From assembly GCA_041652475.1 (NCBI GenBank), contig JBAZHG010000001.1:8161-72160 (forward strand): DNA of 64,000 bases. The letters run 5' to 3'. This DNA is from Bacilli bacterium (GTDB lineage Bacteria > Bacillota_I > Bacilli_A > RFN20 > CAG-826). A program made the translations under genes and the position numbers. Shown one piece after another: positions 1,197 to 48,819 of this stretch. Below the pieces are notes generated by a model. It did not search any database. It was not told the DNA's origin and was given only the letters and a program-made list of their open reading frames with translations. Each line of letters starts with the position of its first letter. Position 1 is the first letter of the stretch.

Positions 1197-4052
1197 TTAT
1201 GAATTGGTTTTCTTGCGACGGCAATCGAGTTCTAGGACCGGCTTAAGGTAGCGACCGGTATACGACTTCTCGACTTTGACGATGTCTTCCGGGGTCCCGG
1301 TGGCGACGATGGTGCCGCCCCGATGGCCGCCTTCAGGGCCTAAATCGATGATATAATCGGCCACTTTGATGACATCGAGGTTGTGTTCGATCACGATGAC
1401 GCTGTCGCCGTGGTTGACGATTGACCGGAGGACGTCCAACAAATGGGCGACGTCGTCGGTATGAAGACCGGTGGTCGGCTCGTCAAGGATGTAAAGCGTC
1501 TTGCCGGTGGCCCGTTTTTGCAGTTCAAACGCCAATTTGACCCGTTGGGCCTCGCCCCCGGAGATGGTCGTGGCCGGTTGCCCCAGCTTCATGTAGCCCA
1601 AACCGACGTTGAAGAGCGTTTGGAGCTTCCGTTTCAGCCTGGGCCGATTTTCGAAAAAGCCCAGGGCTTCTTCAACCGTCATCTCAAGCACGTCGTGGAT
1701 GTTTTTCCCTTTATAGGTGACTTGAAGCGTTTCTTCGTTATAGCGCTTGCCGTCGCATTCCTCGCATTTGACGTAGACGTCGGGCAGGAAATTCATCGGG
1801 ATGCGCTTGACCCCGTCGCCCTGGCAGTGTTCGCAGCGCCCGCCCGGGATGTTGAACGAAAAACGGCTCTTGGAAAAGCCGCGCGACTTGGCTTCGATCG
1901 TCTCCGAAAAGAGGTCGCGGATGTCGTCGAAGACCTTGGTGTAGGTGGCTGGGTTGCTGCGCGGAGTCCGGCCGATCGGATCTTGGGAAATGTCGATGCA
2001 TTTATCGATATTCTCAAGGCCTTTGATGGCGTCATGAGCCCCGGGATAGGTCGCCGTCTTCTTGAATTGCTGTTCGATGGCTTTGAACAAAATCTCGGTG
2101 ATGAGCGACGATTTTCCGGATCCGGACACCCCGGTCACGGCCACGAATAGACCGAGGGGGATCTTCACGTCGATGTTTTTGAGGTTGTTGCAGCGGGCTC
2201 CGAATATCTCGATGAACATTCCGTTGCCCTTGAGGCGCGCCGGCGGGCACGATATGTATTTGCGGCCGGCCAGGTAATCGCCGGTGATCGAGCGCGGGCT
2301 CGCGATGATGTCTTCCAGTTGGCCGACGGCGACGACTTCCCCGCCGTGCTGGCCGGCCCCCGGGCCGATGTCGACGATGTAGTCGGCCGAACGAATCGTT
2401 TCTTCGTCATGTTCGACCACGATCAGGGTGTTACCGATGTCGCGCATCTGGCGCAGGGTTTCGATCAGGCGGCGGTTGTCGCGCTGATGGAGGCCGATGC
2501 TCGGTTCGTCGAGAACGTACAAAACGCCGCTTAGCTGCGAGCCGATCTGGGTGGCCAGCCGGATCCGTTGGGCTTCCCCGCCGGACAAGGTCATGGCCAG
2601 GCGCGATAAAGTCAAATAATCCAAGCCGACGTTGATGAGGAATTCGGCGCGATGCTGGATTTCCTTAAGGACCATTCGGCCGATTTCTTGCTCGGAAGCG
2701 GTCAATTTGCCCGGCAAGGCGACAATCCAATCCCGGAGTTCGGTGATCGGGGCGGCAGTCACTTCGTAAATGTTGTGTCCGTCGATCAAAACGGCTAAAG
2801 CCTTGGGGTTGAGCCGGGCGCCGCCGCAGGTGGTGCAAATGGTGTCGCGGAGGAATTTTTCATAGTATTCGCGCATGAAGTCGCTCGTCGTCTCCCGGTA
2901 GAGCCGTTCGACCCGTTTTTTGACGCCTTCGATGAAATTGTAGCGATGGTTGAGATTGCCCGAGGACGATTTAAGGACGTAACGGTGCATCTTCGGGGAT
3001 CCTTCGAAAAGAATCGTCCGTTGTTCGGCGGTCAATTCCTTGAAAGGAACGTTCAGCGGGATATCGTACTCATGGCACAGGTAAGCGAAATCCTGCCATT
3101 CGAGGTTGGTGGTCCCGACCGTGTTCTTGTAGTATTCGATTGCCCCTTGGTTAATGGATAGATCCTGATTGGGTACCAGAAGGTCGGGATCGGCCTCGCG
3201 TTTGAACCCAAGCCCGTTGCAATCGGGGCAATACCCAAGCGGGGCGTTGAAGGAAAAGAGCCGCGGTTCCAATTTCGGGACCGAAAAACCGCAATACTTG
3301 CAGGAATGATGTTGGCTGAAGAGCCGCTCGGCGTCGTTGATCAAGATGGTGACATAGCCGTGGCCCCAGTCAAGCGCCAGTTCAAGGGCGTCGAAAAGAC
3401 GTGACCGGACATCGTCTTTTAAAACGATTCGGTCAATCACGATGTCGAGGCGATGTTTCTTGTTCTTGTCGAGCTCGCCCACCTCCTCGATGCGGAGTTG
3501 GCTCCCGTCGACCCGCAGGCGCTCGAAGCCTTGGGTTTTGATCTTGGCGATGGTGTCCTTATGGGTCCCTTTCTCGTCGCTGACGACCGGGGCCAACACC
3601 TGAATGCGGCTGTTGGGTTCCGCTTCTAGGATGATGGAGGCCATCTGCGAGGGCGAAAAGGCGATGATCGGTTCGTGGTGGATCGGGCAGTAGGGGACGC
3701 CGACCCGGGCGAAGAGCAGCCTCAGGTAATCATATATTTCGGTCACCGTGCCGACGGTGGACCGGGGATTGTGCGAGGTCGTTTTTTGGTCGATGGAAAT
3801 GGCCGGCGACAAACCTTCGATCGATTCGACGTCGGGTTTTTCAAAGTTGCCCAAAAACTGCCGCGCGTAACTCGACAGCGATTCGACGTAACGGCGTTGC
3901 CCTTCCATGTAGATGGTGTCGAAGGCCAGGGTCGTCTTGCCGCTTCCGGAGAGACCGGTAAAGACGATTAATTGGTCTTTGGGCAGCTCGACGTCGATGT
4001 TCTTCAGGTTGTTCTCGCGGGCGCCTTTGATGACGATTTTCTTATTGTCCAA
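1197..4052 (-). CDS. uvrA: Excinuclease ABC subunit A
   Basis: 951 aa with two ABC ATPase modules (GLSGSGKT/GVSGSGKS Walker A, LSGGEAQR signatures) and zinc-finger cysteines. The start codon appears to be TTG (plus-strand complement at 4050-4052). Confidence 0.95.
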   Translation of the reverse strand: MDNKKIVIKGARENNLKNIDVELPKDQLIVFTGLSGSGKTTLAFDTIYMEGQRRYVESLSSYARQFLGNFEKPDVESIEGLSPAISIDQKTTSHNPRSTVGTVTEIYDYLRLLFARVGVPYCPIHHEPIIAFSPSQMASIILEAEPNSRIQVLAPVVSDEKGTHKDTIAKIKTQGFERLRVDGSQLRIEEVGELDKNKKHRLDIVIDRIVLKDDVRSRLFDALELALDWGHGYVTILINDAERLFSQHHSCKYCGFSVPKLEPRLFSFNAPLGYCPDCNGLGFKREADPDLLVPNQDLSINQGAIEYYKNTVGTTNLEWQDFAYLCHEYDIPLNVPFKELTAEQRTILFEGSPKMHRYVLKSSSGNLNHRYNFIEGVKKRVERLYRETTSDFMREYYEKFLRDTICTTCGGARLNPKALAVLIDGHNIYEVTAAPITELRDWIVALPGKLTASEQEIGRMVLKEIQHRAEFLINVGLDYLTLSRLAMTLSGGEAQRIRLATQIGSQLSGVLYVLDEPSIGLHQRDNRRLIETLRQMRDIGNTLIVVEHDEETIRSADYIVDIGPGAGQHGGEVVAVGQLEDIIASPRSITGDYLAGRKYISCPPARLKGNGMFIEIFGARCNNLKNIDVKIPLGLFVAVTGVSGSGKSSLITEILFKAIEQQFKKTATYPGAHDAIKGLENIDKCIDISQDPIGRTPRSNPATYTKVFDDIRDLFSETIEAKSRGFSKSRFSFNIPGGRCEHCQGDGVKRIPMNFLPDVYVKCEECDGKRYNEETLQVTYKGKNIHDVLEMTVEEALGFFENRPRLKRKLQTLFNVGLGYMKLGQPATTISGGEAQRVKLAFELQKRATGKTLYILDEPTTGLHTDDVAHLLDVLRSIVNHGDSVIVIEHNLDVIKVADYIIDLGPEGGHRGGTIVATGTPEDIVKVEKSYTGRYLKPVLELDCRRKKTNS

Positions 4053-4054
4053 TT

Positions 4055-4098
4055 AAAAAACCTCAGGTTATCATTATATGATAATTGAGGTTCTTTTT
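4055..4098. terminator. Bidirectional rho-independent terminator between the anti-sigma gene and uvrA
   Basis: Imperfect inverted repeat cctcaggttatcat..atgataattgagg, flanked by an A-run on one side and a T-run on the other. Confidence 0.6.
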
Positions 4099-4116: not shown

Positions 4117-6204
4117 TTAGTCAATCAGGATCGGCAGCGGGTCGACCATCAAGTCGACCGAAGCCACCTGGGCATAATCTTCATCCATGTCATGGGCGGT
4201 GACCGCCATGTCGCTGACGGCGAAGAGATACGATCCGATGTAGACCGCTCGGGTGATGCTGGCCGACCAGTAAGAGAAGTAACCGTACCGATCGACGAGT
4301 TCGTCTTGATGCTCGATCGCGAAGCCGCTGTGGCTGATCACGGCCTCAATCGTAATCGGGGTCTCCGAGCTCGGATCGACGTTGAAGACATAGTAATTGT
4401 CAAGATAGATCCAATCATAAGCCACGCCATAGTAGTAGCTGGAAATGCTGAATCCGAGCAACCCGAGTTCGATGTCGACCAGCAGGGCCTTGTGGTTATA
4501 TAACGCCTCGCTCCACTGCCAGCCGTAATCTTCGTTCCACAACACGAGCGGTTCCCCGACGACGACGGGATTTTCTAAATCGCTGACGTCGAACAAGGTG
4601 AGTTTGAGCCCGAAGACATCGTTACCTTCGGATTCATAGCCTATCCCCAAAATCAAATTGGGCGCCCACACGTGTTGATAGGTGGCATAGCCGCTGACCT
4701 TAAGTCCGGCTTCGATCGTCGGATGGAGCGGATCGGACAAATCGACCGTGTACAACGGGTCGGTGATTTCGTAGGTCACAATCGTGGCCGCGTCTTCGTT
4801 GAAGCGGACCGACCTCACCGTTTCGCCCGGTTCTCCAATCCCTTCGTCGATGAGGGCGACTTGAGTCAGAAAACGTTTTTCATCAATGGTTTGGCGCTCG
4901 TAGACATAGAGGCGGTTCTTGGCGGAACTGCCCCAGCCATCGGTGGTCACCATCCGGAGATAGCCGTCGTATTCGTCGATGGCAAATTGATTCAAGACCC
5001 AGCCTTTATAGGTGCCGGCCCCGCCGAAGGTGACCGTCCCGTCTTCTTCAAAGAGGTACGACATCAAGAGGCCGTTATAGCCGTAGCTGTCCCCGATGAC
5101 GCTGTAATAGTAATAATAGCTGGCCAGGTAGATGGCTTGATGGCTCACGTAAACGATGCCCCAACTGGCGTTTCCAAGGAAGATGTCGAGCCCCAAGGCT
5201 TCCGAATTGATTTCTTGGTCCAGGAAGATCGTCGCGATGATAGTGAAGGTTTCGGTCGGGAGCGATTCCATGTACTTGATGTCGGAAAACTCCGGCACGA
5301 TCACTTCTTCGTCGACGCGGAAAACCGGCCGCGGATCATCGTCTTCGTCGACGAAATAGGGTTGATGGTTCGAGATGATATACAAGCGTTCACCAATCAT
5401 CCGGGTGGTGAGATAGTAGCCGTTAAGTTCAATCTCATGGGCTAGTTCCAAATCGTCGAGATTATACAAATAAACCATGGTCTGGGGGATGCCCCAGTAG
5501 TAGCATAGGCAATCGATCGCGGCTTCGCCGTCTTGGTATTCGTAGGTGAAGATCTCGTAACGTTGCCCGATGACCACCAAATAGTCTTCACTTAAGTAAA
5601 TGTCCGAAAAATAGGTATAGCTCCCTTCGTCTCGAAGCGAGTCCATCGATTGATCGAGGATGACTTCCATCTGTCCTTCCTCGAGGACGTCGATAACTTG
5701 GAGACGGTTATAGGAAATCTTGTAGATGCGGTCGTCGTCGACTTTGATGATGTCGCCCTCGTCGACGCCCTCGACTTGGACGTTGGTCTCCGAGTGGCCC
5801 GAACCTTCATTATCCCCCTGATCGTCGGCCGGGCTTTCAGTGGTCGCGAGAGAACTACCGTCGGTGTTATACCCGACTTCGGGGACGCCGCTCCGCCACG
5901 AGTAACTGTCAATCAAATCGCGGAGCTGATCGACGTCTTGGACTTGGGCTAAGCCGTAATCATTTGGGTTGCGGTTGTCCTTGTAGTCGGATATGATCAC
6001 CGCGCCGATGGCAAGCGAAGCCGCCAGGGCGGTCAAAAGGCTCCCGCCTTTCCAAACAAGCGGCCGCCATTTCGGGGTCCGTTTGGGACTGGGGGTGCCC
6101 GTCGGGGTCGTGAAAACGAGTTTGTTTGAGAAATCGAAATCCGGGGTTCGATCTTGGAAATAGGCGCGACCTTGCTCTTTGATTTCTTTCTTGAAGTTCT
6201 TCAT
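4117..6204 (-). CDS. Membrane-anchored anti-sigma factor with a large extracytoplasmic beta-propeller-type domain (Beta_propel/PF09826-like)
   Basis: 695 aa. A short cytoplasmic N-terminus is followed by a single TM (LLTALAASLAIGAVIIS) and a long aromatic/Tyr-rich repetitive ectodomain (YYYYYS, GYYL, YGW...). The gene starts 2 nt after the ECF sigma stop and has an AGGAGG SD. Confidence 0.7.
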   Translation of the reverse strand: MKNFKKEIKEQGRAYFQDRTPDFDFSNKLVFTTPTGTPSPKRTPKWRPLVWKGGSLLTALAASLAIGAVIISDYKDNRNPNDYGLAQVQDVDQLRDLIDSYSWRSGVPEVGYNTDGSSLATTESPADDQGDNEGSGHSETNVQVEGVDEGDIIKVDDDRIYKISYNRLQVIDVLEEGQMEVILDQSMDSLRDEGSYTYFSDIYLSEDYLVVIGQRYEIFTYEYQDGEAAIDCLCYYWGIPQTMVYLYNLDDLELAHEIELNGYYLTTRMIGERLYIISNHQPYFVDEDDDPRPVFRVDEEVIVPEFSDIKYMESLPTETFTIIATIFLDQEINSEALGLDIFLGNASWGIVYVSHQAIYLASYYYYYSVIGDSYGYNGLLMSYLFEEDGTVTFGGAGTYKGWVLNQFAIDEYDGYLRMVTTDGWGSSAKNRLYVYERQTIDEKRFLTQVALIDEGIGEPGETVRSVRFNEDAATIVTYEITDPLYTVDLSDPLHPTIEAGLKVSGYATYQHVWAPNLILGIGYESEGNDVFGLKLTLFDVSDLENPVVVGEPLVLWNEDYGWQWSEALYNHKALLVDIELGLLGFSISSYYYGVAYDWIYLDNYYVFNVDPSSETPITIEAVISHSGFAIEHQDELVDRYGYFSYWSASITRAVYIGSYLFAVSDMAVTAHDMDEDYAQVASVDLMVDPLPILID

Positions 6205-6205
6205 G

Positions 6206-6724
6206 TCATTGTCCTCCGCTCTGGTTGTACCAGGCTTTTAATGTCTTGAGGGCTTCGCGGTAATCGCGGTGGACGCTGGTCAAGGGTTCTTGAAGCAGCG
6301 CGGCGATTTCCTTGAAGGTCAACTCATAGACAAGGCGGTAGGCGATGACGAGGTTTTCTTTCTCGCTGAGGCAGCTTTGCCACAGGCTGATGAAGTTCGT
6401 CGGGACATCACTTTTTCCAATTTGGTCCCAGGCTTCCGGATCAAGCGTCGTCTCGGGCGGTTGTTTGAGGCGGTTTATGGCCCCGTTGCGCGCGATACGG
6501 ATAATCCAACCATGGAAGGCACTCGGATTTCGGAGCGACTTTGCTTCGGTGAATACCTTGATGAAGGTGTCCTGAAGCAGGTCTTCGCTCGTCTGGGGAT
6601 GCTTCGTGATCGAGAAGACGATCACGTAGAGCAGATCCCGGTAGTGATGATAGACTTCATTGAAAGCCGTCTCATCGCCCGCTTGAAGGTTGAAGATTGT
6701 CGAATCCGGCAGACGTTTGAACAT
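6206..6724 (-). CDS. ECF-type RNA polymerase sigma-70 factor
   Basis: 172 aa with sigma region 2 (YRDLLYVIVFSITKH..DLLQDTFIKVF) and region 4 HTH (LTFKEIAALLQEPLTSVHRDYREAL). Confidence 0.9.
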   Translation of the reverse strand: MFKRLPDSTIFNLQAGDETAFNEVYHHYRDLLYVIVFSITKHPQTSEDLLQDTFIKVFTEAKSLRNPSAFHGWIIRIARNGAINRLKQPPETTLDPEAWDQIGKSDVPTNFISLWQSCLSEKENLVIAYRLVYELTFKEIAALLQEPLTSVHRDYREALKTLKAWYNQSGGQ

Positions 6725-7000: not shown

Positions 7001-7043
7001 GCGAGTCTTTTCATTAATTGATTAATGACGATATAATGACTTT

Positions 7044-7397
7044 ATGAATAATGTGAAACCCATAATAAATCGAAGAAAGAAACGCGAATTCGAAGACCGA
7101 TTAATCAAACTGGTGGCCATTACTTTGGTTTATTTGACCGGAATTGGCCTATTGATATGGGCCATTATCGCCAATGATTTTTGGTTGTGGTTGCTTCTTG
7201 TGCCTTTGGCTTTTGTTTTCTCGACTTTCTTTCCCGTCTTGTGGATTAAAACCTTGAAACGATCGTTGACTTCAAATGATCTCATTAACGTCATCTTGAT
7301 GATCTTTGGCACAATCGTGATGCCCTTTGTGATTGTAATCGAGTTTGTTCGTTTAAAACAGGATTATGACGATTATAAGGTCACGCTCCAGGAATAA
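7044..7397 (+). CDS. Small 3-TM membrane protein of unknown function, in a locally AT-rich segment
   Basis: 117 aa, hydrophobic (LVAITLVYLTGIGLLIWAIIAN.., LLLVPLAFVFSTFFPVLWI, VILMIFGTIVMPFVIVIEF). It is one of only three real plus-strand genes in the window. A TATAAT -10 sits 6 nt before the ATG with no SD. Confidence 0.6.
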   Translation: MNNVKPIINRRKKREFEDRLIKLVAITLVYLTGIGLLIWAIIANDFWLWLLLVPLAFVFSTFFPVLWIKTLKRSLTSNDLINVILMIFGTIVMPFVIVIEFVRLKQDYDDYKVTLQE

Positions 7398-7456: not shown

Positions 7457-11006
<3,550 letters not shown>

Positions 11007-11523: not shown

Positions 11524-11552
11524 AACATCACCGCCTTCATTTACAATACGTA

Positions 11553-11676: not shown

Positions 11677-11705
11677 AGTTTACAACAAACTGGCCCCGGT
11701 ATCAA
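11677..11705 (-). promoter_or_regulatory. Sigma-70 promoter for tRNA-Lys (TTGATA-17-TAAACT)
   Basis: The minus strand reads TTGATAccggggccagtttgttgTAAACT about 10 nt upstream of the tRNA 5' end. Confidence 0.5.
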
Positions 11706-24763: not shown

Positions 24764-24829
24764 AAATTCACTCCTTAGATTCTTTGTGCATTACGGTACA
24801 CAATACCCGGTGTATCAACCTCCGTCTTT

Positions 24830-24856
24830 TTAAAATGACCGTCGCCGGTCACCAGA
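24830..24856 (-). terminator. Short GC hairpin with a T-tract, lying inside the rpsL 5' leader. Likely terminator of the upstream protease genes and/or a leader attenuator.
   Basis: The minus strand reads GGTGACCG-GCGA-CGGTCAtttTAAAAAG: a 6-bp stem followed by only a 4-T tract. Confidence 0.4.
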
Positions 24857-24917: not shown

Positions 24918-26486
24918 TCAAATCGCCACGAAGGAAAGCGTCGCCTCGTAGCGGTCCAGCGCTTCGACGGTAAACGCCCACGGAAGCGGGGTCCCGTCAT
25001 TGAAAGTGAAAGTTTGATATGATCCGATTCCAAAGGAGTCGCCTTCATTCAATAAGATGTCGTTGGTGGCCATCGACCCGGTCAAGAAGGTCGTCGAGCC
25101 GCCTTTTTCAAGCAGGCGGTAGATGAGGTTTTCGTTGACGGTGGTCGCGTAGGTGTTCGTATGGGCCACTTGCCGATAATAGGCTCCCGAGGCGAAAACG
25201 TCGCTCGGGAGGTCGAGTTCCGGACCTTGGTCTTCGTAGGCGATGAAGGCGTCCCCGGCGCTCCGGTGATAACTGGCCCGGGCGTCGACGTGGTACACCT
25301 TGATGCCGAAATGGCCCATTAAGTGGGCCGAGTCGTGACCATAAGCCCGTTCCGAATCGACGTAGTTGAGTTTGGTCGGGGCGTAGAATTCGATGGCCAG
25401 GTACTCGTCGAAAGCCTTGCCGGACCAGTCGGGGGCGACGATGATCGCCTCCCCGGAGGAAACTAGGGGGGCAATGTCGATTTTCCCGGGTCCGGTCACC
25501 ACGTAGGGCCGCACCCAATCGAGGAGCATCTTGCTCAAGACGGTATGGTCGCCGATCGAATAGTCCATCATGTCGACTTTTCCAGTCGGGCCGTAGGTGT
25601 ATTGGTAGCGTTTGTAGATGGAATCGCTCGGCGAGAAATCGGGGAAGGTGCTTGGAAGTGCCGAAGTATTGTAATAATCGGTCAGTCCCAGCAAATGCCC
25701 GAATTCATGGATGAAGGTATGGGGATCGCCTTTTTGGCGGTAGACGTTCAAAAAATGATAGCTGGCCCACACGTAGGCGTTTCCGATCGGATTGCCGAGG
25801 TAATTGGCCCCGTCGAGCCCGGTGTCAAACGAGGTAAAGGCCCAGAAAACCGACTCGTTGTTGCGGTAGGGGGCGGCGTAAACGAGGAAGACGGAATCGA
25901 GGTAGCCGTCGCCGTCTTGGTCGTAATCGCCGGCGTCGGAGTAGTTTCCCTTATACCAAGTGACCGCCGCTTTCAAGATGCGCTCGGTCGCCACGGTCTT
26001 GCTCCCGGAACTGATTAAATCGGCGACCGATTCCGGGCTCGAATACCATTGGCTGACACGTCCGGATAGTTCCAGTTGGCCGTAACTCGATTTGTGGTAA
26101 AAACTGGCCACCGATTCCCACTGGGTCGTCTCCGGGCGGCCGAAAAAGGCGTTTTGAATGATCAATCGGCTGGCGGTTTCCCCCTCGTCGAGGCGATCGG
26201 CCCGGTAATCGGCGAAATCGACCGGGATCACCAGCACTTTCTGGGCTCCGCGGCTTGACATCGGCACCCGGCGCTGGCTGGCGACGGGATGGGTTCTTAG
26301 CATCGAATTGTAATCGTCGGAGTAAGCCTCCGGCCGATAGTAGTTTTCCTGGACGACTCCCGATTGCTCAAAGGCGATCGGCGCGAAACCATACGGCAAA
26401 AAGGCGACCGAGCCAAGCGCGCAGCCCGACAAGGCGGCGACGGCCCCCAGGGTGATGGCCATCCGGGCGTAGAGGCGCTTCTTCAT
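24918..26486 (-). CDS. Secreted zinc metalloprotease lipoprotein, M6/InhA-like HExxH zincin (paralog 1)
   Basis: 522 aa. Lipobox AALSGCALG. Motifs HEFGHLLGLTDYYN and MMDYSIGDH. Paralogous to the adjacent gene. Confidence 0.7.
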   Translation of the reverse strand: MKKRLYARMAITLGAVAALSGCALGSVAFLPYGFAPIAFEQSGVVQENYYRPEAYSDDYNSMLRTHPVASQRRVPMSSRGAQKVLVIPVDFADYRADRLDEGETASRLIIQNAFFGRPETTQWESVASFYHKSSYGQLELSGRVSQWYSSPESVADLISSGSKTVATERILKAAVTWYKGNYSDAGDYDQDGDGYLDSVFLVYAAPYRNNESVFWAFTSFDTGLDGANYLGNPIGNAYVWASYHFLNVYRQKGDPHTFIHEFGHLLGLTDYYNTSALPSTFPDFSPSDSIYKRYQYTYGPTGKVDMMDYSIGDHTVLSKMLLDWVRPYVVTGPGKIDIAPLVSSGEAIIVAPDWSGKAFDEYLAIEFYAPTKLNYVDSERAYGHDSAHLMGHFGIKVYHVDARASYHRSAGDAFIAYEDQGPELDLPSDVFASGAYYRQVAHTNTYATTVNENLIYRLLEKGGSTTFLTGSMATNDILLNEGDSFGIGSYQTFTFNDGTPLPWAFTVEALDRYEATLSFVAI

Positions 26487-28049
26487 GAATGAGCCTCCCG
26501 GAGGGCGACGGTGATCGTCGCCTCGTGACCGTCAACCGCATCGATGGTTATCGTGTATGGGAACAAGTCCCCATCATTGAAGGAAAAATTCGGATAGTTG
26601 CCCTCGTCGAAGGCCTCCCCGGCTTCGAATAAGGACCCGTTCGTGGCCACGTAGCCGTGCTTGAGGGAATTCCGTCCGTTTGGCTCCAACAGCTGGATCA
26701 ATTTGTGGTAGGGGACCCCGCTCCGGCCGGCGCTGTTGCTGTTGGCCAGTCCGTAATAGACACTCGCAGTCCGGTTTTCCACCCGGTCGACGTAGTCTTG
26801 GAAACGCCACTGACCAGCGCGTTGGACGAAGCGGCCGGGCCGGGCGTCGATGTGGTAAAGCTTGATTCCGGCTTGGCTGAACTGGCGCGGGTAATAGCCG
26901 GCGAATGGTTGGGCCGCGTCCTTTTGATTCAAAGAATCAGGGCGATAGTATTCGATGAGCAGATACTCGTCGAGCAGCCGCTCGTCGTAATGGATCGGGA
27001 CGATGGCCGCCTCGGGCTCGGCCACCGACGGGGCGAGGCTGAAAGTCGCTTCGCCGTTGATGACCTTGGGCTGTAGCCAACCCAGGAGGGCTTTGGAAAA
27101 AGCCCCGTGGTCGCCGACGTTATAATCCATCATGTCGAGGGCCCCGCACGGACCCCAGTCGCCGCGATCGGCGTCGTAGGAATAATAATCGACCAAACCG
27201 AGAAAATGGCCGATTTCATGGATGTAGGTGTGGGCGTCAATCAGGAGTTTCCCGTATTCGTCGGTCCAGGGATGAAAGACCAGTTCGTCATTCTCATCGC
27301 GGAGCAAGCGGCCTTGCTCGTCGCGGTCGTAATAGCCGTCTTTGTACATGAAGTCGTAGCTGGACCACCCGTAATGGTAGACCCCGGGCCGGTTGACGTC
27401 GGCCACGCCGGCGTTATCGAAGCTCGTGTAGGCCCAAAACACCCGTTCCTCGTCGAGGAAAACTTCATCGTGGTCGTGGGCCGGGACCGAATAAACGAAG
27501 TACAAGGCGTCGATATAGCCGTCGCCGTCGCCATCAAAACGGGTCATGTCGTCAAGGTGATGCTCGCGGTACCAAGTCACGGCCGGGCGCATGATTTCCG
27601 CGGCGACCGAGTGTTCGTTCCGGAGCAAGAGGCTCATGGCCGGGACTTCGGCCTCGTACCACTCGCTGACTTCGCCTTCGAATTCGAGTTGCCCGTAGCT
27701 CGATAAGCCGTAGAACGAGCTGACCGAATGCCAGCCGGTTTCGGCGGGTTCCCCGAAGAAGGCCGCTTCGATGTCGGAACGCACCCCGGCGCACCCGCCG
27801 GTCAAGACGCGGCACGGATAATCGGAAAAAGTCACCGGGATGACCAAAATCGGGACGTTCCCGGTCGCCGGCGTCGCCGAGGCATAACCCTGGGCGCGTC
27901 GTAGGGTTTGGTAATCAAGTCGATACGCGGTCGGAGTCATGACGTCCGGGAGGCTCGTCGTTTCGCTCGAAACCGGCTCCGAAACCGAAGCGCAGCCCGA
28001 TATAACGACCATCGCCATGACATAAAAAAGGTTCTTCTTCATGTTCATT
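26483..28049 (-). CDS. Secreted zinc metalloprotease lipoprotein, M6/InhA-like HExxH zincin (paralog 2)
   Basis: The true start is MNMKKNLFYVMAMVVISGCAS. Its ATG overlaps the transporter stop (ATGA). Motifs HEIGHFLGLVDYYS and MMDYNVGDH. The ORF-track N-terminal 207 aa (Arg/Gly-rich) is an unstopped high-GC artefact. Confidence 0.7.
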
Positions 28050-29430
28050 CGACCAAACGGGGGAAAAGGAGATTCAAAACGAACGCCAACAGGATGATGA
28101 TCAAATAACTCGGAATCGGGGTGGTCCCGATCATGATTCGCAAAGAGGTATTGCCGAGGAAGTCGGAGATGAATTCCATCGTCGTCATCAAGATGCCGGC
28201 CCCGAGCACGACCATGGCCAAAGCCGTCGCCTGGGGGTGGAGATCGTCGTGGATCCGTTCGGTCACCCGCCCGAATCCGCGCACGGCTTGATAACCGGCC
28301 CAAGCCACGAGCACCCCGCCGACGGCCGGAAGCGGGATCAAGTCGAACGCCCGGGCAATCGGCAGATAAGCACTGAGACCGATGGTGAATAGCGCTAGAA
28401 GGACCAATACGAGCGGTCGGGCTTTCGGGAGCCGGGTCCCGATGGCGACCGTGTCCTCGTTGAAAGTGAGCGGGACCCCGGATACCATCCCCCCGACTAA
28501 AACGGCCACCCCTTCGATTAGGATGGTCTTGTCGGCGTGAGGGCTCTCTTCCGGGTTGGGGGCCGCCAAAGCGTAACGGGTGAGCGAGGCCATGTGCTCG
28601 GACACGGTCACCAAAACGAGCGGCACGAATAGAAGCAGGCTTTCCCAATCGAAGTGGAGATACTGCCAAAAGCCGAAGTAGGCTTCAAGGTTATGGAGCG
28701 GGGTCGGGGCCGTCTCGGCGAAGAACGAGGCGTTCATGAATCCAATCATCAGCGTTTCGTCGAGCGATTTCGATATCCACAGGAGCTCGACGGCGTCGAG
28801 CAGTAACCCCATGGCGACGCCACCGGCCAGGCCGATCAGTATTGCACTAGCCGGTTGCTGCCCGACTTTTTTGCTTAAGGAAGTGGTGATGAAATAGCCC
28901 ACGAAGGCGGCGACGGCCACCAGGACGTATTTATAAGCCGGGCCGCCCGATGCCAGGAGCGGCTCATAGTAGGCAAAGCTAAAAATCCGCGGCAAGAGCG
29001 ACAAGGCCAACAGGACCATCAAGGCCCCGCTGAAGGCCGGCGAAAAGACGCGGCGCATCCGCCGGACGCCGATGTAGCGCGCCAACGTCGCCAAAAGGAT
29101 GTACAAAAGCCCGCTGATCCATAGGGAAACTAGGAGGCCGCCGAGGCGGAAATTCCAAGCCGGGGTCCCGATTTCGAGCGTTTCGAGCGAGCGCCCGTAG
29201 ATGACGAGCCCGGCTAAAAAGACAAACGAAGGCGCGGCCCAAAGCGGGAAGCGGCGACCGCCCATGATCAAGACGACGAGCCCGGCCAGGCCGATCGAAA
29301 GCCAAATCGAAGAGAGGCCGACGTTGGCCCCCACGGCGACGACGAGCGACCATCCGAAAACGGCCAGCCATTGGCGCCAGCCGTTGGCCCATCCCTGCGG
29401 GACGCGGGTTTTCGTTCGGGTTTCGGTCAT
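28045..29430 (-). CDS. Polytopic membrane transporter-like protein (family not assignable by eye; possibly a nucleobase or solute permease)
   Basis: 461 aa with about 12 hydrophobic segments. Leaderless-type start (TATCAT -10, 7 nt before the ATG, no SD). Confidence 0.45.
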   Translation of the reverse strand: MTETRTKTRVPQGWANGWRQWLAVFGWSLVVAVGANVGLSSIWLSIGLAGLVVLIMGGRRFPLWAAPSFVFLAGLVIYGRSLETLEIGTPAWNFRLGGLLVSLWISGLLYILLATLARYIGVRRMRRVFSPAFSGALMVLLALSLLPRIFSFAYYEPLLASGGPAYKYVLVAVAAFVGYFITTSLSKKVGQQPASAILIGLAGGVAMGLLLDAVELLWISKSLDETLMIGFMNASFFAETAPTPLHNLEAYFGFWQYLHFDWESLLLFVPLVLVTVSEHMASLTRYALAAPNPEESPHADKTILIEGVAVLVGGMVSGVPLTFNEDTVAIGTRLPKARPLVLVLLALFTIGLSAYLPIARAFDLIPLPAVGGVLVAWAGYQAVRGFGRVTERIHDDLHPQATALAMVVLGAGILMTTMEFISDFLGNTSLRIMIGTTPIPSYLIIILLAFVLNLLFPRLVE

Positions 29431-29463
29431 AGTTTAATGATACAACAATTAAGGATTGGACTT

Positions 29464-29490
29464 TTAAAAAAAGCGTGGTCTCCCACGCTT
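29464..29490 (-). terminator. Strong rho-independent terminator after rpoC
   Basis: Hairpin aagcgtgg-tctc-ccacgctt (8 bp), followed on the minus strand by TTTTTTT. Confidence 0.85.
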
Positions 29491-29501
29491 TGGTTCATCG
29501 G

Positions 29502-40004: not shown

Positions 40005-40092
40005 GGAAAATTTGCCATTAATTTGAGGGAACCGCCATTTGGGACATAAATCTCCCATTTAGCCAATATTGGACAGCCACTCCCATAAGTAA

Positions 40093-40104
40093 TATAATCT
40101 TTCC
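40093..40104 (+). promoter_or_regulatory. ktrB -10 element (TATAAT), 6 nt upstream of the ATG. Leaderless-type promoter.
   Basis: TTGGAC-18-TATAAT-ctttcc-ATG with no SD. Confidence 0.45.
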
Positions 40105-41484
40105 ATGGTTCGCGTCTCGCGCGAACCTGAGGCATTTCCCTTGCTTACCAAACGAAAAGTATCGCCCTACCTGCTCGTCTTTCTGAGTTTCGCGGCCTTG
40201 GTCTTCCTCGGCACCGCCCTTTTCGCGTTGCCGTTCTCCCATCGCGACGGCCAATGGGGCGGCTTCGTCGATTCCTTGTTCCTGTCGGTTTCGGCCGTGT
40301 GCGTGACCGGTCTCTCGCCTTATGCCAGTTTGATTCAAGAATTCACTTTATTCGGCCAGTTGGCCTTGTTGGTGCTTATTTCCGTCGGCGGCCTCGGTTT
40401 CATCACCGTCTTCACCTTCGTCGTCACGCTGTCGGGGCGGCGCATCGGCATCATCGATCGCTACATCATCAAGGAAGCCTTGAACTTATCCTCGATGAAG
40501 GGCGTCATCAACTTCGTCCGCAAGGTCATATTCATCACCTTGATCATCGAAGGGGTCGGGACGATTCCCTACCTCTTCGTGATGGTGCCCCGCTATGGTT
40601 TCTGGGAAGGGCTTTTCCAATCGGCCTTCCTGGCGGTTTCTTCGTTCAACAACGCCGGGTTCGATCTCTTGGGGAGCACCAGCCTTCAGGCTTATGCTTC
40701 TAACGCCATCGTCAACATCACGACCATGGTCCTGATCGTTTCAGGCGGCATCGGATTCCTGGTCTGGATCGATTTGCTGTCGCGGCGGCCGGCCCGCACC
40801 TGGTCGGCTTACACCAAAGTGGTCTTGACGATGACCGCCATCTTGATCCCATTTGGGATGGTGACCTTGATGTTCACCGAAATGAACCAGAGCAACGACT
40901 TGACCTGGCTTCAAGCCCTCTTCCACAGCGTCACGGCCCGCACCGCCGGTTTCTCGACCATCGACGTGAACCGCATTTCTTTGGCGGGACGGCTCTTCCT
41001 CATGATCTTGATGTTCATCGGCGCCAGCCCGATTTCGACCGGCGGCGGCATCAAGACGACGACCATCTTCATTATCGTGGTGGCGATCGTATCCTTCATC
41101 CGGGGCAAGCCGGTCCATGCCTTCAAACGATCGTTTTCGAACACGACCGTCATCAAGGCCATGTCCTTGACCTTCATCGCCGCGGTCTTGGTCTTCATCT
41201 CGATCATCGCCATCGAGCGGATTGAATCCGTCAATGGGGCTTATCCCCCGGGAATGTTCGACGCCAGCGCCTTCATGTTCGAAGCCTTCTCGGCCTTCGG
41301 CACCGTCGGCTTAAGCCAAGGGGTTACCCCATACCTGGCCGATGGTAGTAAAATAATTTTATCGTTATTAATGTTCTTGGGCCGCACCGGCCCGATGACC
41401 CTGTTCTCGATCGTGTCCGAATCGATGAACCAAACCGACAACGCCCATTACAGCCATATCGAAGCCACGATTCCAATCGGATAA
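40105..41484 (+). CDS. ktrB: Potassium uptake protein, membrane subunit KtrB/TrkH family
   Basis: 459 aa polytopic. Selectivity-filter-like glycine motifs (..SVGGLGFI.., ..GASPISTGGGIKTTT..). Confidence 0.85.
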   Translation: MVRVSREPEAFPLLTKRKVSPYLLVFLSFAALVFLGTALFALPFSHRDGQWGGFVDSLFLSVSAVCVTGLSPYASLIQEFTLFGQLALLVLISVGGLGFITVFTFVVTLSGRRIGIIDRYIIKEALNLSSMKGVINFVRKVIFITLIIEGVGTIPYLFVMVPRYGFWEGLFQSAFLAVSSFNNAGFDLLGSTSLQAYASNAIVNITTMVLIVSGGIGFLVWIDLLSRRPARTWSAYTKVVLTMTAILIPFGMVTLMFTEMNQSNDLTWLQALFHSVTARTAGFSTIDVNRISLAGRLFLMILMFIGASPISTGGGIKTTTIFIIVVAIVSFIRGKPVHAFKRSFSNTTVIKAMSLTFIAAVLVFISIIAIERIESVNGAYPPGMFDASAFMFEAFSAFGTVGLSQGVTPYLADGSKIILSLLMFLGRTGPMTLFSIVSESMNQTDNAHYSHIEATIPIG

Positions 41485-45343: not shown

Positions 45344-46693
45344 CTATAAAATATTGCGCCGTATGAGTTCCGTCCTCAAGGGATCGGAACCTTCATAATC
45401 CCGGGCGGCTTTCTTTGCTTGATAACGCTCGAATAGCGAGCGATCGTCTTCGGTCAGCCGTGGGTAATTAATATCTAGTCCAAGTATATGGAACATTGTC
45501 TTCAAAGTAAAGAAATAGGAGCCCATCCGCTCATAATCGGGCTTGTTTTCCCGCAACGACCGATGGGCGAGCTTGATCAAATCATAAACGGAGGTCAAGG
45601 CGTTGCTGGTATTCAAATCGTCGGCCAGGGCTTTGATAAAGTCGTCAATCAAAAGCGGATACCGGCCTTCGATGTCGCGACCGGCCAACTGAAGGGTGAC
45701 CGCCAACTGTTTGATGGCCGCGGTCATCTTGTTAACCTCGGCTCGGGCCGTCTCCAAGAACGACTGGTTGAAATTGACCGGAAGGCGATAATGGGTCGAC
45801 AAGAGCATCAAGCGGAGGGCCGGGCCCCCGATTGTCGCCAGGGCGTCTTTGGCCGTCAGAATATTGCCGGTCGACTTCGACATCTTGTCGTCGTTGAGGT
45901 TGATGAAGCCATTATGCATCCAGATATTGGCCAGGCGGGTTCCGTGTTGGGCCAAGCTTTGGGCAATCTCGTTGTCGTGATGGGGAAATTTCAAATCGAA
46001 GCCGCCCCCATGGATGTCGATGATCTTTTCTTTAAAAATCGAGTCGATCATGACGGCGCACTCGGTGTGCCAGCCGGGCCGCCCCTTACCCCAGGGACTG
46101 TCGAAGGAGAGGCCTTTCTCGGTTTTCTTCCAAAGGAAGAAGTCAAGTGGAGATTTCTTTTTGCCGGATTCCTCGACCCGGGCTCCGACGATTAAATCGT
46201 CGGTCTTCATGTGGGACAGATGCCCATAATCGGGGATTGAGGAAACTTGGAAGAAGACCTCGCCATCGACGACGTAGGCGGCACCTTTGTCCACCAATCC
46301 TTTGATGTAGGCGACGATTTCTGAGACGAACTCGGTCACCCGCGGGGTCGCCGTCGGAAGTTTGGAATTGATTCGATTGACGTTATCTTCGTAAGCGGTG
46401 ATGAAAAACTCGGCCACTTCGCGTTCGCTTCTATGTTCGGACATGGCCTTGGCGATGATTTTGTCGTCGATGTCAGTGTAATTGCTGACGTAGGTCACCT
46501 GATAACCAAGGTATTCGAAGAGGCGCCTAAGCACGTCAAAGACGACCACCGGACGCATGTTCCCGATGTGGACGAAATCATAAACGGTCGGCCCGCAGAC
46601 GTACAGGCTGACCTGTCCCGGTTGAATCGGGGTGAAGCTTTCAATTTGATCAGACCAGCTGTTGAAAAGGCGAATTTCCATCGGCAACCTCAT
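45344..46693 (-). CDS. cysS: Cysteine--tRNA ligase
   Basis: 449 aa. The HIGN (HIGH-type) and KMSKS motifs are present. Confidence 0.97.
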   Translation of the reverse strand: MRLPMEIRLFNSWSDQIESFTPIQPGQVSLYVCGPTVYDFVHIGNMRPVVVFDVLRRLFEYLGYQVTYVSNYTDIDDKIIAKAMSEHRSEREVAEFFITAYEDNVNRINSKLPTATPRVTEFVSEIVAYIKGLVDKGAAYVVDGEVFFQVSSIPDYGHLSHMKTDDLIVGARVEESGKKKSPLDFFLWKKTEKGLSFDSPWGKGRPGWHTECAVMIDSIFKEKIIDIHGGGFDLKFPHHDNEIAQSLAQHGTRLANIWMHNGFINLNDDKMSKSTGNILTAKDALATIGGPALRLMLLSTHYRLPVNFNQSFLETARAEVNKMTAAIKQLAVTLQLAGRDIEGRYPLLIDDFIKALADDLNTSNALTSVYDLIKLAHRSLRENKPDYERMGSYFFTLKTMFHILGLDINYPRLTEDDRSLFERYQAKKAARDYEGSDPLRTELIRRNIL

Positions 46694-46757
46694 TAGTGAT
46701 ATTACTTTAGCATATTATCGCGATTTTGCTCCTAATCGCGCGAAAAACGATGTTCGA

Positions 46758-48071
46758 TTACTTGATCGTCCAGCGATCGACATATTCGTCAACCCCGAAC
46801 TTGCGTTTGAGCCCGGCCATGTTCATGTAGCGGACGGTCCCGAAGACCGCTCGTTCGCCCCATGGACGGTCGTGGACGCCCCCAAGGGCCCAGGCGATGC
46901 CGACGTAACCATTGGGATCGCGTCCGTCCAGTTGATACTTGTCATTCAAATACAACGCCGTTTTGAAGGCTTCTTCCGGACTTGGAATCCATTCGAGGAT
47001 TTTTTTGGCCCAATACATGCGCATATATCCGTGCATGTAATTCGTTTTGGTCAATTGGGTTTGGGCGGCGTTCCAGGCCGGGTCGTGGGTCTTGGCGTAT
47101 TCAAGTTCTTCCAAAGTATAAATATATGGACGCGGGTCGTTCCGATGGGCGTCAAGGCTTCGCTTGGCCCAATCGGGAAAACCGGAGATCGAATCATAGT
47201 TCTGATTGTAATGGCAAAAATTGTCCGCTAGTTCGCGCCGGACGATCATCTCTTCGAGGAATTCTTCGCTCGGATGGCGGCTTTGCTGCACTTCTAGGGC
47301 TAGGCGGTTGGCGCTCAGGTTGCCGAAGTGGAGGTAAGCCGAGAGCCTCGAGGTCACGTCCAAGTTTGGATTGTTGCGGAAATGGTAATCGGTCAATCTT
47401 TCATCGATGAAGCTTCGCATGGCCGCTTCCGGGGTCGGCAGCGGCGGCAAGCCATCGAGCCAGGCTGCCAGGCTTTGATCAACATGGATTTGCGCCGTCC
47501 CGAGGAATTTCACTTCGGGAATCGAAAGAAGATAGTTAGGTAAAAGACGCTGGATTTTCGGACGCAGGGTGTAAGCTCCCCATTCGGCTTTATTCGAGGC
47601 CATCCATACCGGGATGACGTTATGGGCGTCCACTTCGAGAAAACGGATGTCGATTGCCTCATTGACGTGATCTTTTATCGCTTGAATTTCCTTCAAGGGT
47701 GAAAAATCGCTCATCAAGACCCCGGCCCGTTCCCGTTTTATCAACGCCGGAATCACTTCAATCGGGTTACCCCGTTCGATTGAGAAGTCGATGCCGAGTC
47801 GGCGGGCTTCGTCGAGAACGTGTCTGAGCCCTTGCCCGAGTCGAACGTAAATCGGATTCGATTGATTGAAAACCAAGGAGCTAAAACCATCGAACATCAC
47901 GAAGACGACCGCCAAGGGCCGATTCGTCTTTTGGGCCAAATCGGCGGCGGCCACCAGGGCCCAATTGTCGACCAAACGTTGGTCGCGATTCATCCAATAG
48001 ATGATTTTGCCGGGGCCGTAGGGTTTGTCATTGCGAGCACTGATCCGGTTTTCAAGCAAGAGACGGCTCAC
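46758..48071 (-). CDS. phr: Deoxyribodipyrimidine photolyase (class II CPD photolyase-like)
   Basis: 437 aa. The C-terminal FAD-binding region carries MHGYMRMYWAKKILEW, as I recall for class II photolyases. Confidence 0.75.
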   Translation of the reverse strand: MSRLLLENRISARNDKPYGPGKIIYWMNRDQRLVDNWALVAAADLAQKTNRPLAVVFVMFDGFSSLVFNQSNPIYVRLGQGLRHVLDEARRLGIDFSIERGNPIEVIPALIKRERAGVLMSDFSPLKEIQAIKDHVNEAIDIRFLEVDAHNVIPVWMASNKAEWGAYTLRPKIQRLLPNYLLSIPEVKFLGTAQIHVDQSLAAWLDGLPPLPTPEAAMRSFIDERLTDYHFRNNPNLDVTSRLSAYLHFGNLSANRLALEVQQSRHPSEEFLEEMIVRRELADNFCHYNQNYDSISGFPDWAKRSLDAHRNDPRPYIYTLEELEYAKTHDPAWNAAQTQLTKTNYMHGYMRMYWAKKILEWIPSPEEAFKTALYLNDKYQLDGRDPNGYVGIAWALGGVHDRPWGERAVFGTVRYMNMAGLKRKFGVDEYVDRWTIK

Positions 48072-48733
48072 GGTTGGCTTTCCTCATTGATGACCGCCTG
48101 CAGCAATTGCCCGGGTCGGTCGATGATAAAGGCGGGTTGGGCTTCCAGCAAACGTTCTCGAGGGACATATCCCCAAGTGACCGCGGCCGCCCTCATGCCC
48201 AAGGCTGCGGCGGTCTTGATGTCCACGAGCGAGTCGCCGACGTAAACCGAGGTCTGCGGATCGACGCCATATTTTTCAAGGATGGGCAAAAACGGGGCGA
48301 CATTGGGTTTAGGAGCATGTCCGGGCTGCTGCCCGATTACGGCTTCAAAGGCGCCCGGGAACCGGGCTTCGATTAGCTTGACGGCAAATGGATGGGGCTT
48401 GTTCGAATAAACGAATAGACGCATGCCCCGATTGATCAAATCATTGATTAAAGCCAACACGCCGGGAAAAGGCCGGGTGGCTTCAAGTTGATAGACGATT
48501 TGCCGTTTCATGTAGGCGTCTTTGAACGATTGGTAGGTCTCCTGGTCCAAAATCGCCCCCTTCAAGGCGTGGCGGAGCAAATGCTCGGTTCCGTGCCCAA
48601 GAAACGATTTGCCTTCGGCCACCGTAATCTCCGGCAAGCTGAAATCAATCAAGGTTTCGTTCAAGGCCTTGGTGATTTCCTCAATGGTGTCCAAGAGGGT
48701 CCCGTCGAGGTCAAAAACAAGATTTTTAATCAT
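48068..48733 (-). CDS. HAD-superfamily phosphatase (phosphoglycolate phosphatase/beta-PGM-like)
   Basis: 221 aa. DLDGTLLDT motif I and a ..VGDSLVDIKTA.. motif IV. Leaderless-type start with the shared 16-mer. Confidence 0.85.
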   Translation of the reverse strand: MIKNLVFDLDGTLLDTIEEITKALNETLIDFSLPEITVAEGKSFLGHGTEHLLRHALKGAILDQETYQSFKDAYMKRQIVYQLEATRPFPGVLALINDLINRGMRLFVYSNKPHPFAVKLIEARFPGAFEAVIGQQPGHAPKPNVAPFLPILEKYGVDPQTSVYVGDSLVDIKTAAALGMRAAAVTWGYVPRERLLEAQPAFIIDRPGQLLQAVINEESQP

Positions 48734-48787
48734 GATTTAATGATACAACAAAATCGATTCCAAATGATTCGGCATGAGCGAATCTAG

Positions 48788-48810
48788 AAAAAAACCCTGC
48801 TAAGCAGGGC
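48788..48810 (-). terminator. Rho-independent terminator after rplQ (end of the alpha operon)
   Basis: Hairpin ccctgc-taa-gcaggg, followed on the minus strand by TTTTTTT. Confidence 0.8.
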
Positions 48811-48819
48811 TATTTTCGG

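Follow-up and report, generated by a model that had tools for sequence, protein, structure and literature searches.

Two operons of a Bacilli-affiliated lineage are probably expressed as leaderless mRNA from conserved promoters without a −35 box

Promoters in which the −10 box is extended upstream, as TGn or, in the −16 region of Firmicutes, as TRTGn, are reportedly the subject of work by Voskuil and Chambliss in 1998 and by Mitchell et al in 2003. Firmicutes are known to extend the −10 box with TG or TRTG (PMC12641261). In bacterial leaderless genes a TANNNT hexamer is found, the first T of which precedes the start codon by about 12 nt, and such promoters are widespread in Actinobacteria and Deinococcus-Thermus and occur in some Firmicutes (Zheng et al, 2011; PMC3160421). 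A −10 box with a G at −14 or −13 has been documented as a minimal promoter of mycobacteria and occurs frequently in Streptomyces, at least as given in the passage of PMC6344877 that cites Zhu (2017, J Bacteriol), and a Bacillus subtilis promoter used for the expression of single-guide RNA reads GTGTTG-TACAAT-AAATGT (PMC9324163). Here we describe two sites on the minus strand of a 64-kb stretch of contig JBAZHG010000001.1 (assembly GCA_041652475.1) from a Bacilli bacterium, the whole of which we refer to as the window. At these sites the same 16-mer, TTGTTGTATCATTAAA, stands just ahead of the start codons of a xanthine/uracil-family permease gene and a HAD-family phosphatase gene. We consider it likely that both are housekeeping (sigma-A/sigma-70-type) promoters lacking a −35 box, from which the operons headed by these genes would be expressed as leaderless mRNA.

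The two copies of the 16-mer are exact, as an earlier note on this DNA had pointed out, and lie at 29433-29448 and 48736-48751. Each is followed by 2 nt and then the ATG, CT in the case of the permease (ATG 29430-29428) and TC in the case of the HAD phosphatase (ATG 48733-48731); the earlier note had given the spacing as 2-3 nt, reading CTA for the first. Because exactly 2 nt follow each copy, the TATCAT within the 16-mer is 6 nt from the ATG at both sites, and so the close geometry claimed for it stands, though not the range of 6-7 nt for these two sites. Counting back from the ATG, each site is made up of TTGTTG at −18 to −13 (29443..29448 for the permease and 48746..48751 for the HAD phosphatase), the hexamer TATCAT (29437..29442 and 48740..48745) and 6 nt of A/T-rich sequence, TAAACT at 29431..29436 and TAAATC at 48734..48739. 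The first 4 nt of TAAACT finish the 16-mer.

The relatives with which the window was compared come from freshwater and other metagenomes, have 44-58% GC and share 47-70% protein identity in the HAD phosphatase and 43-84% in the permease. The spacer between rpoC and the permease was aligned for 5 lineages and that between rplQ and the HAD gene for 6, giving 11 sites in total. Protein identity in the aligned lineages is no more than 46-84% in the permease and 47-70% in the HAD phosphatase. Synteny is fully conserved around both, the order being rpoB-rpoC-terminator-[permease, ~520-aa lipoprotein, ~520-aa M6-like protein]-rpsL-rpsG-fusA in the one block and rplQ-terminator-[HAD, photolyase]-cysS in the other. 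At the permease site TTGTTG is invariant in all 5 lineages. It is followed by TATCAT-taaact-ATG in the window and in L004, by TATAGT-aatcat-ATG in L022, by TATTAT-atcgat-ATG in L024 and by TATTAT-tgaaat-ATG in L027, so that the length of the discriminator is kept and its sequence is not, except that −1 is always T. At the HAD site the window reads TTGTTG-TATCAT-taaatc-ATG, and the orthologous sites read TTATTG-TATCAT-taaagc-ATG (L017), TTGTTG-TATCAT-taaagc-ATG (L018), TTGTTG-TATGAT-tatcaat-ATG (L020), ATGTAG-TATCAT-ttacgt-ATG (L030) and TTGTTG-TATCAT-aaactc-ATG (L032); TTGTTG is thus present in 4 of the 6 lineages and TATCAT in 5, and −1 is C or T.

Taking the 11 sites together, T-12, A-11, T-10 and T-7 of the hexamer are fixed at every one, with −9 and −8 variable. 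The gap between the hexamer and the ATG is 6 nt at 10 sites and 7 nt in L020 though its sequence drifts, and −1 is a pyrimidine throughout (11/11). Within the rpoC-permease spacer the sole invariant blocks are the terminator stem with its T-run, TTGTTGTAT, the last T of the hexamer and the T-ATG, and there is no invariant column in the 17-19 nt that separate the T-run from TTGTTG. In the rplQ-HAD spacer the columns that do not vary close to the start are T-17, T-15, G-13, TAT and AT. TTGTTG directly abuts the hexamer and is second only to it in conservation.

No conserved −35 box is found at spacers of 16-18 nt, the best candidates matching at no more than 3/6 positions at 10 of the 11 sites and at 4/6 at the HAD site of L032. 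Since a −35 box is one of its requirements, a simple promoter scan gave no match at either site. The fixed positions of the hexamer, the held gap and the pyrimidine at −1 suggest that the hexamer is placed so that transcription begins with the A of the ATG. In the mechanism we propose, TATCAT would be the −10 hexamer and the 6 nt after it an A/T-rich discriminator ending in the −1 pyrimidine, with TTGTTG extending the −10 box upstream and standing in for the absent −35 box. Both the permease and the HAD-photolyase operons would then be leaderless, and the two sites would be independent, ancient promoters held by selection and not copies of one another. The earlier suggestion that TATCAT acts as a −10 box in leaderless geometry is therefore supported by the conservation across 11 sites, the gap of 6-7 nt among them and the lack of a Shine-Dalgarno sequence, and its remark that the identity goes beyond a bare −10 box is borne out by the six extra bases, TTGTTG, which form a conserved element.

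No GGAGG-like Shine-Dalgarno sequence is present within 20 nt upstream of either gene, in agreement with the earlier note, and most genes of the window carry one of the GGAGG type. Both start codons are secure, since an in-frame TAA lies 2 codons upstream of each ATG, the catalytic motif FDLDGT of the HAD phosphatase begins at residue 7, with its N-terminus, MIKNLVFDLDGT, aligning with the orthologues from residue 1, and the alignment with 11 permease homologues of 458-465 aa covers 100% of the query. Each site also follows an intrinsic terminator, as the note had said. That of rpoC (29466..29491, −) is a hairpin of −14.3 kcal/mol (z −4.0) followed by U7, the stem and T-run of which are invariant in the 5 lineages, and that of rplQ (48788..48817, −) is a hairpin of −16.9 kcal/mol (z −5.1), again followed by U7. 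While the order on which the idea of re-initiation after terminators was based does hold, it is merely the normal arrangement of a terminator and then the next promoter. An Rfam scan of the whole window found only two tRNAs that reach the gathering score, and no riboswitch or leader family at the permease or HAD site.

Both genes head operons and are not single genes. The permease gene (28045..29430, −; Pfam PF00860, E 3e-26), whose transcription would start at the ATG, is followed by a gene for a 519-aa predicted lipoprotein (MKKNLFYVMAMVVISGC...; 26483..28042, −), the ATG of which lies 2 nt past the permease stop codon. This second gene encodes a lipoprotein signal peptide, and an orthologue of 522-523 aa follows the permease in every relative. 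The third gene (24918..26486, −), which has a 4-nt overlap with the second, encodes a 522-aa protein that is weakly M6-peptidase-like (Pfam PF05547, E 5e-7), and it stands ahead of rpsL in the relatives too. The HAD-family gene (48068..48733, −; Pfam HAD_2, E 4e-30) is phosphoglycolate-phosphatase-like and would likewise be transcribed from its ATG; a DNA photolyase gene (46758..48071, −; Pfam PF00875) overlaps its stop codon by 4 nt, and the two remain adjacent in L017, L020 and L030.

By searching the intergenic regions of the window for T[AG]TTGTA we found 4 matches, all of them on the sense strand just upstream of genes, where about 1 would be expected on both strands. Two of the four sites are not upstream of the permease or HAD genes. 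The promoter of tRNA-Lys(CTT) (11677..11705, −) has a −35 box, TTGATA, at 11700-11705, a 17-nt spacer ending in TTGTTG at 11683-11688 and a −10 box, TAAACT, at 11677-11682. In L191 and L195 it reads TTGCGA-N17(...TTGTTG)-TAATAT, with TTGTTG kept and the remaining spacer changed. The tRNA-Lys promoters have a normal −35 box, matching at 5/6 and 4/6 positions, whereas the permease and HAD promoters have none; that TTGTTG compensates functionally for a weak or absent −35 box is a hypothesis. At 11538..11548 (−), after the tRNA-Lys terminator and ahead of a gene for a 146-aa protein that has a leader, TATTG is flush with a −10-like TAAATG; in the same place upstream of this gene the relatives have TGTTG-TAAAAA and TATTG-TAATAA.

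Across 17 sequences from these four promoter families the element can be written T-17, R-16, T-15, W-14, G-13, with T-G/A-T at −17 to −15 and G-13 both present in all 17. The TG at −15/−14 that would place it in the TGn register is not found; the sites read T-15, T-14, G-13, with the G abutting the hexamer. The same lineage has promoters in the canonical TRTGn/TGn register as well, those of cysS, an ABC-ATPase gene, rpmG and tuf, and TRTTG is therefore an alternative register and not a replacement. Because it occurs at the tRNA-Lys and 146-aa gene sites, and because no dyad or spaced repeat is common to the sites, TTGTTG looks from its sequence context like a general promoter element rather than an operator. 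A bolder version of this, to which we give little weight, is that TTGTTG flush with the −10 box is a distinct promoter element characteristic of the lineage (an alternative −16 register, which either region 3 of sigma-A or a factor devoted to it could recognise) that would define a −35-less class, the identity of TATCATTAAA marking the two operons as co-regulated.

The cysS gene, one of those with the canonical register, has a conserved promoter of its own upstream, TRTGn-TAAAGT (TATGC-TAAAGT). In this region (46681-46714, −) the ATG of the longest open reading frame (ORF), at 46693, is probably not the start, and the relatives start at ATGGAAATTCG, corresponding to window position 46681, behind a GAGG Shine-Dalgarno sequence. 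Upstream of rpsL, at 24790-24830 (−), a block TGATACRCCGGGWATTGTGTAYC is kept in four lineages, which may be the promoter of the str operon (TTGTG flush with TAYCNT) or a leader element.

The repetition of a 16-mer is by itself unremarkable in 64 kb. The window has 9 independent repeated 16-mers against a mean of 2.4 in first-order Markov shuffles, and TTGTTGTATCATTAAA is common in A/T-rich DNA, the bare 16-mer being present in at least 120 viral contigs. Among 123 unrelated viral matches listed it is followed by NNATG in 2, which equals the chance expectation of 1/64. Scanning 185,579 species genomes for TTGTTGTATCATTAAA followed by NNATG gave 15 matches, of which the only one from the clade was L004, the permease site of the related metagenome-assembled genome GCA_964495145.1; the matches in L005 and L007 lie within a gene on the opposite strand. 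The same pattern had 36 matches in a metagenome collection and none from the clade, the collection evidently being without these samples, as the site of L018 itself was not returned. A search of the window for relaxed variants, which the earlier note had proposed for the whole genome, found no copy besides the two with up to 3 mismatches allowed. The non-random features are the placement of both copies on the sense strand at an equal distance from genuine starts and the preservation of the core across species.

Some of the matches outside the clade have a context of their own. The 196-kb viral contig IMGVR_UViG_3300042890_003581 has 4 copies of TTGTTGTATCATTAAA (L040, positions 3131, 4580 and 6236, and L071, position 2325), all within a conserved repeat longer than 130 nt that appears to represent paralogous genes in tandem, and the copies are unrelated to the promoters of the window. 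In two metagenome contigs, L167 (627-647, −; 71% GC) and L172 (440-460, +; 60% GC), an arsR-like gene is preceded by exact TTGTTGTATCATTAAA-NN-ATG. That in L172 is the head of an arsR-arsD-arsA-ACR3-arsC operon, and the two contigs have ATTTCAA-N3-TTGTTGTATCATTAAA-NN-ATG in common. These are probably an independent leaderless arsR promoter/operator; a search of plasmid records with the arsR upstream region gave no match.

Given these counts, pure chance might seem to be enough to account for an ordinary repeated 16-mer. However, the probability of a random repeat having both copies 2 nt before genuine sense-strand starts is estimated at ~1e-6, the rate of NNATG among the viral matches is that of chance, and the core is kept across lineages, so that as an account of the whole 16-mer chance is very improbable. 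It is refuted for the core of 11-12 nt and is the likeliest reading for the last 4-5 identical bases. Equally improbable is a small promoter cassette, either mobile, as the earlier note had suggested, or duplicated, that was copied from one site to the other. The 16/16 identity at equal spacing from the ATG in one genome would fit such an event, but the core TTGTTG-TATNAT-N6-ATG is present at both orthologous, syntenic positions in all the relatives examined, down to 46-57% protein identity. The flanks of the two window copies are unrelated, with the similarity ending exactly at the edges of the 16-mer, the window holds only the two copies, and the full pattern with NNATG recurs once in the clade. 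A limited, gene-conversion-like homogenisation of the discriminator may nevertheless have occurred in the ancestor of the closest relatives.

The earlier note also considered a site for a regulator. In this case TTGTTGTA(TCATTAAA) would be a lineage-specific transcription-factor operator overlapping the −10 box and co-regulating both operons, for example as part of a nucleotide-salvage, DNA-damage or light regulon, with the mRNA still leaderless. The 6 nt directly upstream of the −10 box are indeed more conserved than a typical spacer, the two window sites are identical at 5 further positions for which the promoter model has no need, and the permease, HAD phosphatase and photolyase could all touch on nucleotide or DNA-damage metabolism. 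Nevertheless we think an operator unlikely. There is no consistent dyad or spaced direct repeat common to the sites, the flanking partial palindromes varying by lineage, and the element invariably abuts the −10 box, which is where a contact with polymerase would be looked for. It recurs at the tRNA-Lys promoter and ahead of the unrelated 146-aa gene, making four functionally unrelated transcription units, and beyond TTGTTG-TATNAT there is no conservation in the more distant relatives. No regulator gene adjoins either operon, and by eye, with no formal scan, none of the LexA/Cheo box, Fur/PerR, Rex, cre, PurR and ArgR operators fits. It would seem still less probable that transcription comes by read-through or from a distant promoter and that the mRNA is leadered, with the conserved U-rich stretch UUGUUGUAUNAU-N6-AUG serving as a translation-initiation region independent of Shine-Dalgarno pairing. 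Such a reading would agree with the lack of a Shine-Dalgarno sequence in an A/U-rich, unstructured stretch, and terminators are rarely 100% efficient. The conserved positions, on the other hand, are exactly those of a −10 box (the second, A, and the sixth, T, invariant and the fourth and fifth free), TTGTTG and a hexamer also precede a tRNA gene, to which translation is irrelevant, with a −35 box 17 nt upstream, and both upstream terminators are strong and conserved.

Several other candidates were rejected. A sigma-54 (−24/−12) promoter can be read at the HAD site of the window as TGGAAT-N5-TTGTT; the permease site, however, lacks the GG, the spacing of which is displaced by anything from 2 to more than 7 nt in L020, L030 and L032. 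GGAA about 16 nt upstream of the −10 box, as for an extracytoplasmic-function (ECF) sigma factor, occurs in the three closest HAD sites only and is absent elsewhere. An inverted repeat TATCAT-N6-ATGATA at the HAD sites has no counterpart at the permease sites, and its right arm is just the codons for Met and Ile.

A number of points weigh against −35-less housekeeping promoters giving leaderless mRNA. The transcription start and the leaderless state are read from the geometry of the sites alone, and the identity of the sigma factor and the role of TTGTTG are likewise putative. TTGTTG is off the canonical TGn/TRTGn register used elsewhere in the lineage, so that its role as a contact for RNA polymerase is only presumed. 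The clade was sampled over one syntenic block of ~64 kb, which bears on how general the element is beyond that block. The site at 11538..11548 is the weakest of the four because T-7 is missing, leaving it with a poor −10 box. Finally, the model does not require the identity of the two window sites at C(−9) and TAAA, the chance of which is estimated at ~0.1-0.5% per given pair, before allowing for the search for repeats by which the pair came to the attention of the earlier note.

Of the full 16-base identity, about 11-12 bases are under functional constraint as judged from the alignments, and 11 of them (TTGTTG and T-A-T-.-A-T) are explained by conserved promoter function. C(−9) and TAAA are common to the closest relatives only, at both sites; the distant permease lineages differ, and among the more distant lineages at the HAD site they are partly kept in L032 only. 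This part of the identity is probably coincidence or a weak constraint on an A/T-rich discriminator, the odds of coincidence being raised by the A/T-richness of all the discriminators, though an additional common function may be involved.

Other genes of the window look leaderless, namely trkH, which has a −35 box, and the ORF at 7044. At 40075-40107 (+) the trkH gene is preceded by TATAAT-ctttcc-ATG with a −35 box, TTGGAC, at 18 nt. Its core, TAATATAATCTT, is kept in four relatives, and the ATG is at +7 in the window and L017 only. The 117-aa ORF at 7044-7397 has a candidate leaderless start at 7020-7046 (+), TATAAT-gacttt-ATG.

The three-gene block headed by the permease (24918-29430, −), between rpoC and rpsL, is kept in every lineage of the clade examined and is an unusual, stable occupant of the rpoBC-str junction. 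Elsewhere in the window, the region upstream of uvrA (1197-4052) reads AACCTCA-[TTATCAT-ATA-ATGATAA]-CCTGAGGTT-TTTTT at 4055-4092 (−), forming a hairpin and a U-run. The loop consists of a perfect inverted repeat of 7 bp around a central TATAAT, some 18 nt ahead of the start of uvrA, and the hairpin is almost identical in L191 and L195. It could be a combined terminator and uvrA promoter/operator, and is possibly an SOS-type operator of the lineage. An ECF-type sigma gene (6206-6724, −; Sigma70_r2/r4 in its orthologues) is immediately followed by a gene for a 695-aa beta-propeller protein (4117-6204, −); the pair is kept in the relatives, with a conserved block, TTCAWTTGTCTTTATWAGTGAAGG, upstream of the sigma gene. 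The gene for pyruvate:ferredoxin oxidoreductase (7457-11006, −) appears to be split into ORFs of 990 aa and 246 aa that overlap at ~10266-10429, through either a frameshift or an error of assembly. In the relatives one protein of 1179-1187 aa is encoded.

For annotation, the analysis fixes the start codon of each gene and, downstream of rpoC and of rplQ, the operon boundaries. If the proposed starts are true, it also means that a freshwater Bacilli-affiliated lineage that otherwise relies on Shine-Dalgarno sequences expresses some operons leaderless from −35-less promoters. Compared with the leaderless promoters described previously (PMC3160421), the sites of the window are alike in having A-11 and T-7 invariant, 6-7 nt to the AUG and no Shine-Dalgarno sequence. 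They differ from those with mapped 5' ends in that +1 is placed from sequence geometry, and the host is an uncultured lineage labelled Bacilli, of 44-58% GC, with strong GGAGG sequences otherwise and only a minority of units that look leaderless.

As in the TRTGn promoters, a T/G-rich element lies just upstream of a −10 box that has no −35 box, and T-17, R-16 and T-15 agree. The G of TRTGn, however, is at −14 and is followed by a spacer base, whereas here it is at −13 and flush with the hexamer (TRTTG|TA). The conserved TRTTG register with G-13 in a Firmicute-like lineage would widen, by a little, the flexibility already known for the extended −10 region. With the mycobacterial minimal promoter, as far as the cited passage describes it, the sites share the lack of a −35 box, TANNNT, a G at −13 and a frequent association with leaderless transcripts, though they belong to a different phylum and conserve the longer TTGTTG instead of a single G. 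The B. subtilis promoter used for single-guide RNA, which we take to be Pveg, has TGTTG flush with a TAYNAT −10 box and a 6-nt A/T-rich discriminator in the same way; unlike our sites it has a consensus −35 box, TTGACA, and a leadered transcript. In view of the mycobacterial and B. subtilis precedents the geometry seen in the window is not exotic, and what it points to is an ordinary though neat leaderless promoter, whose extended −10 box is unusual yet has precedents, and not a new regulatory system.

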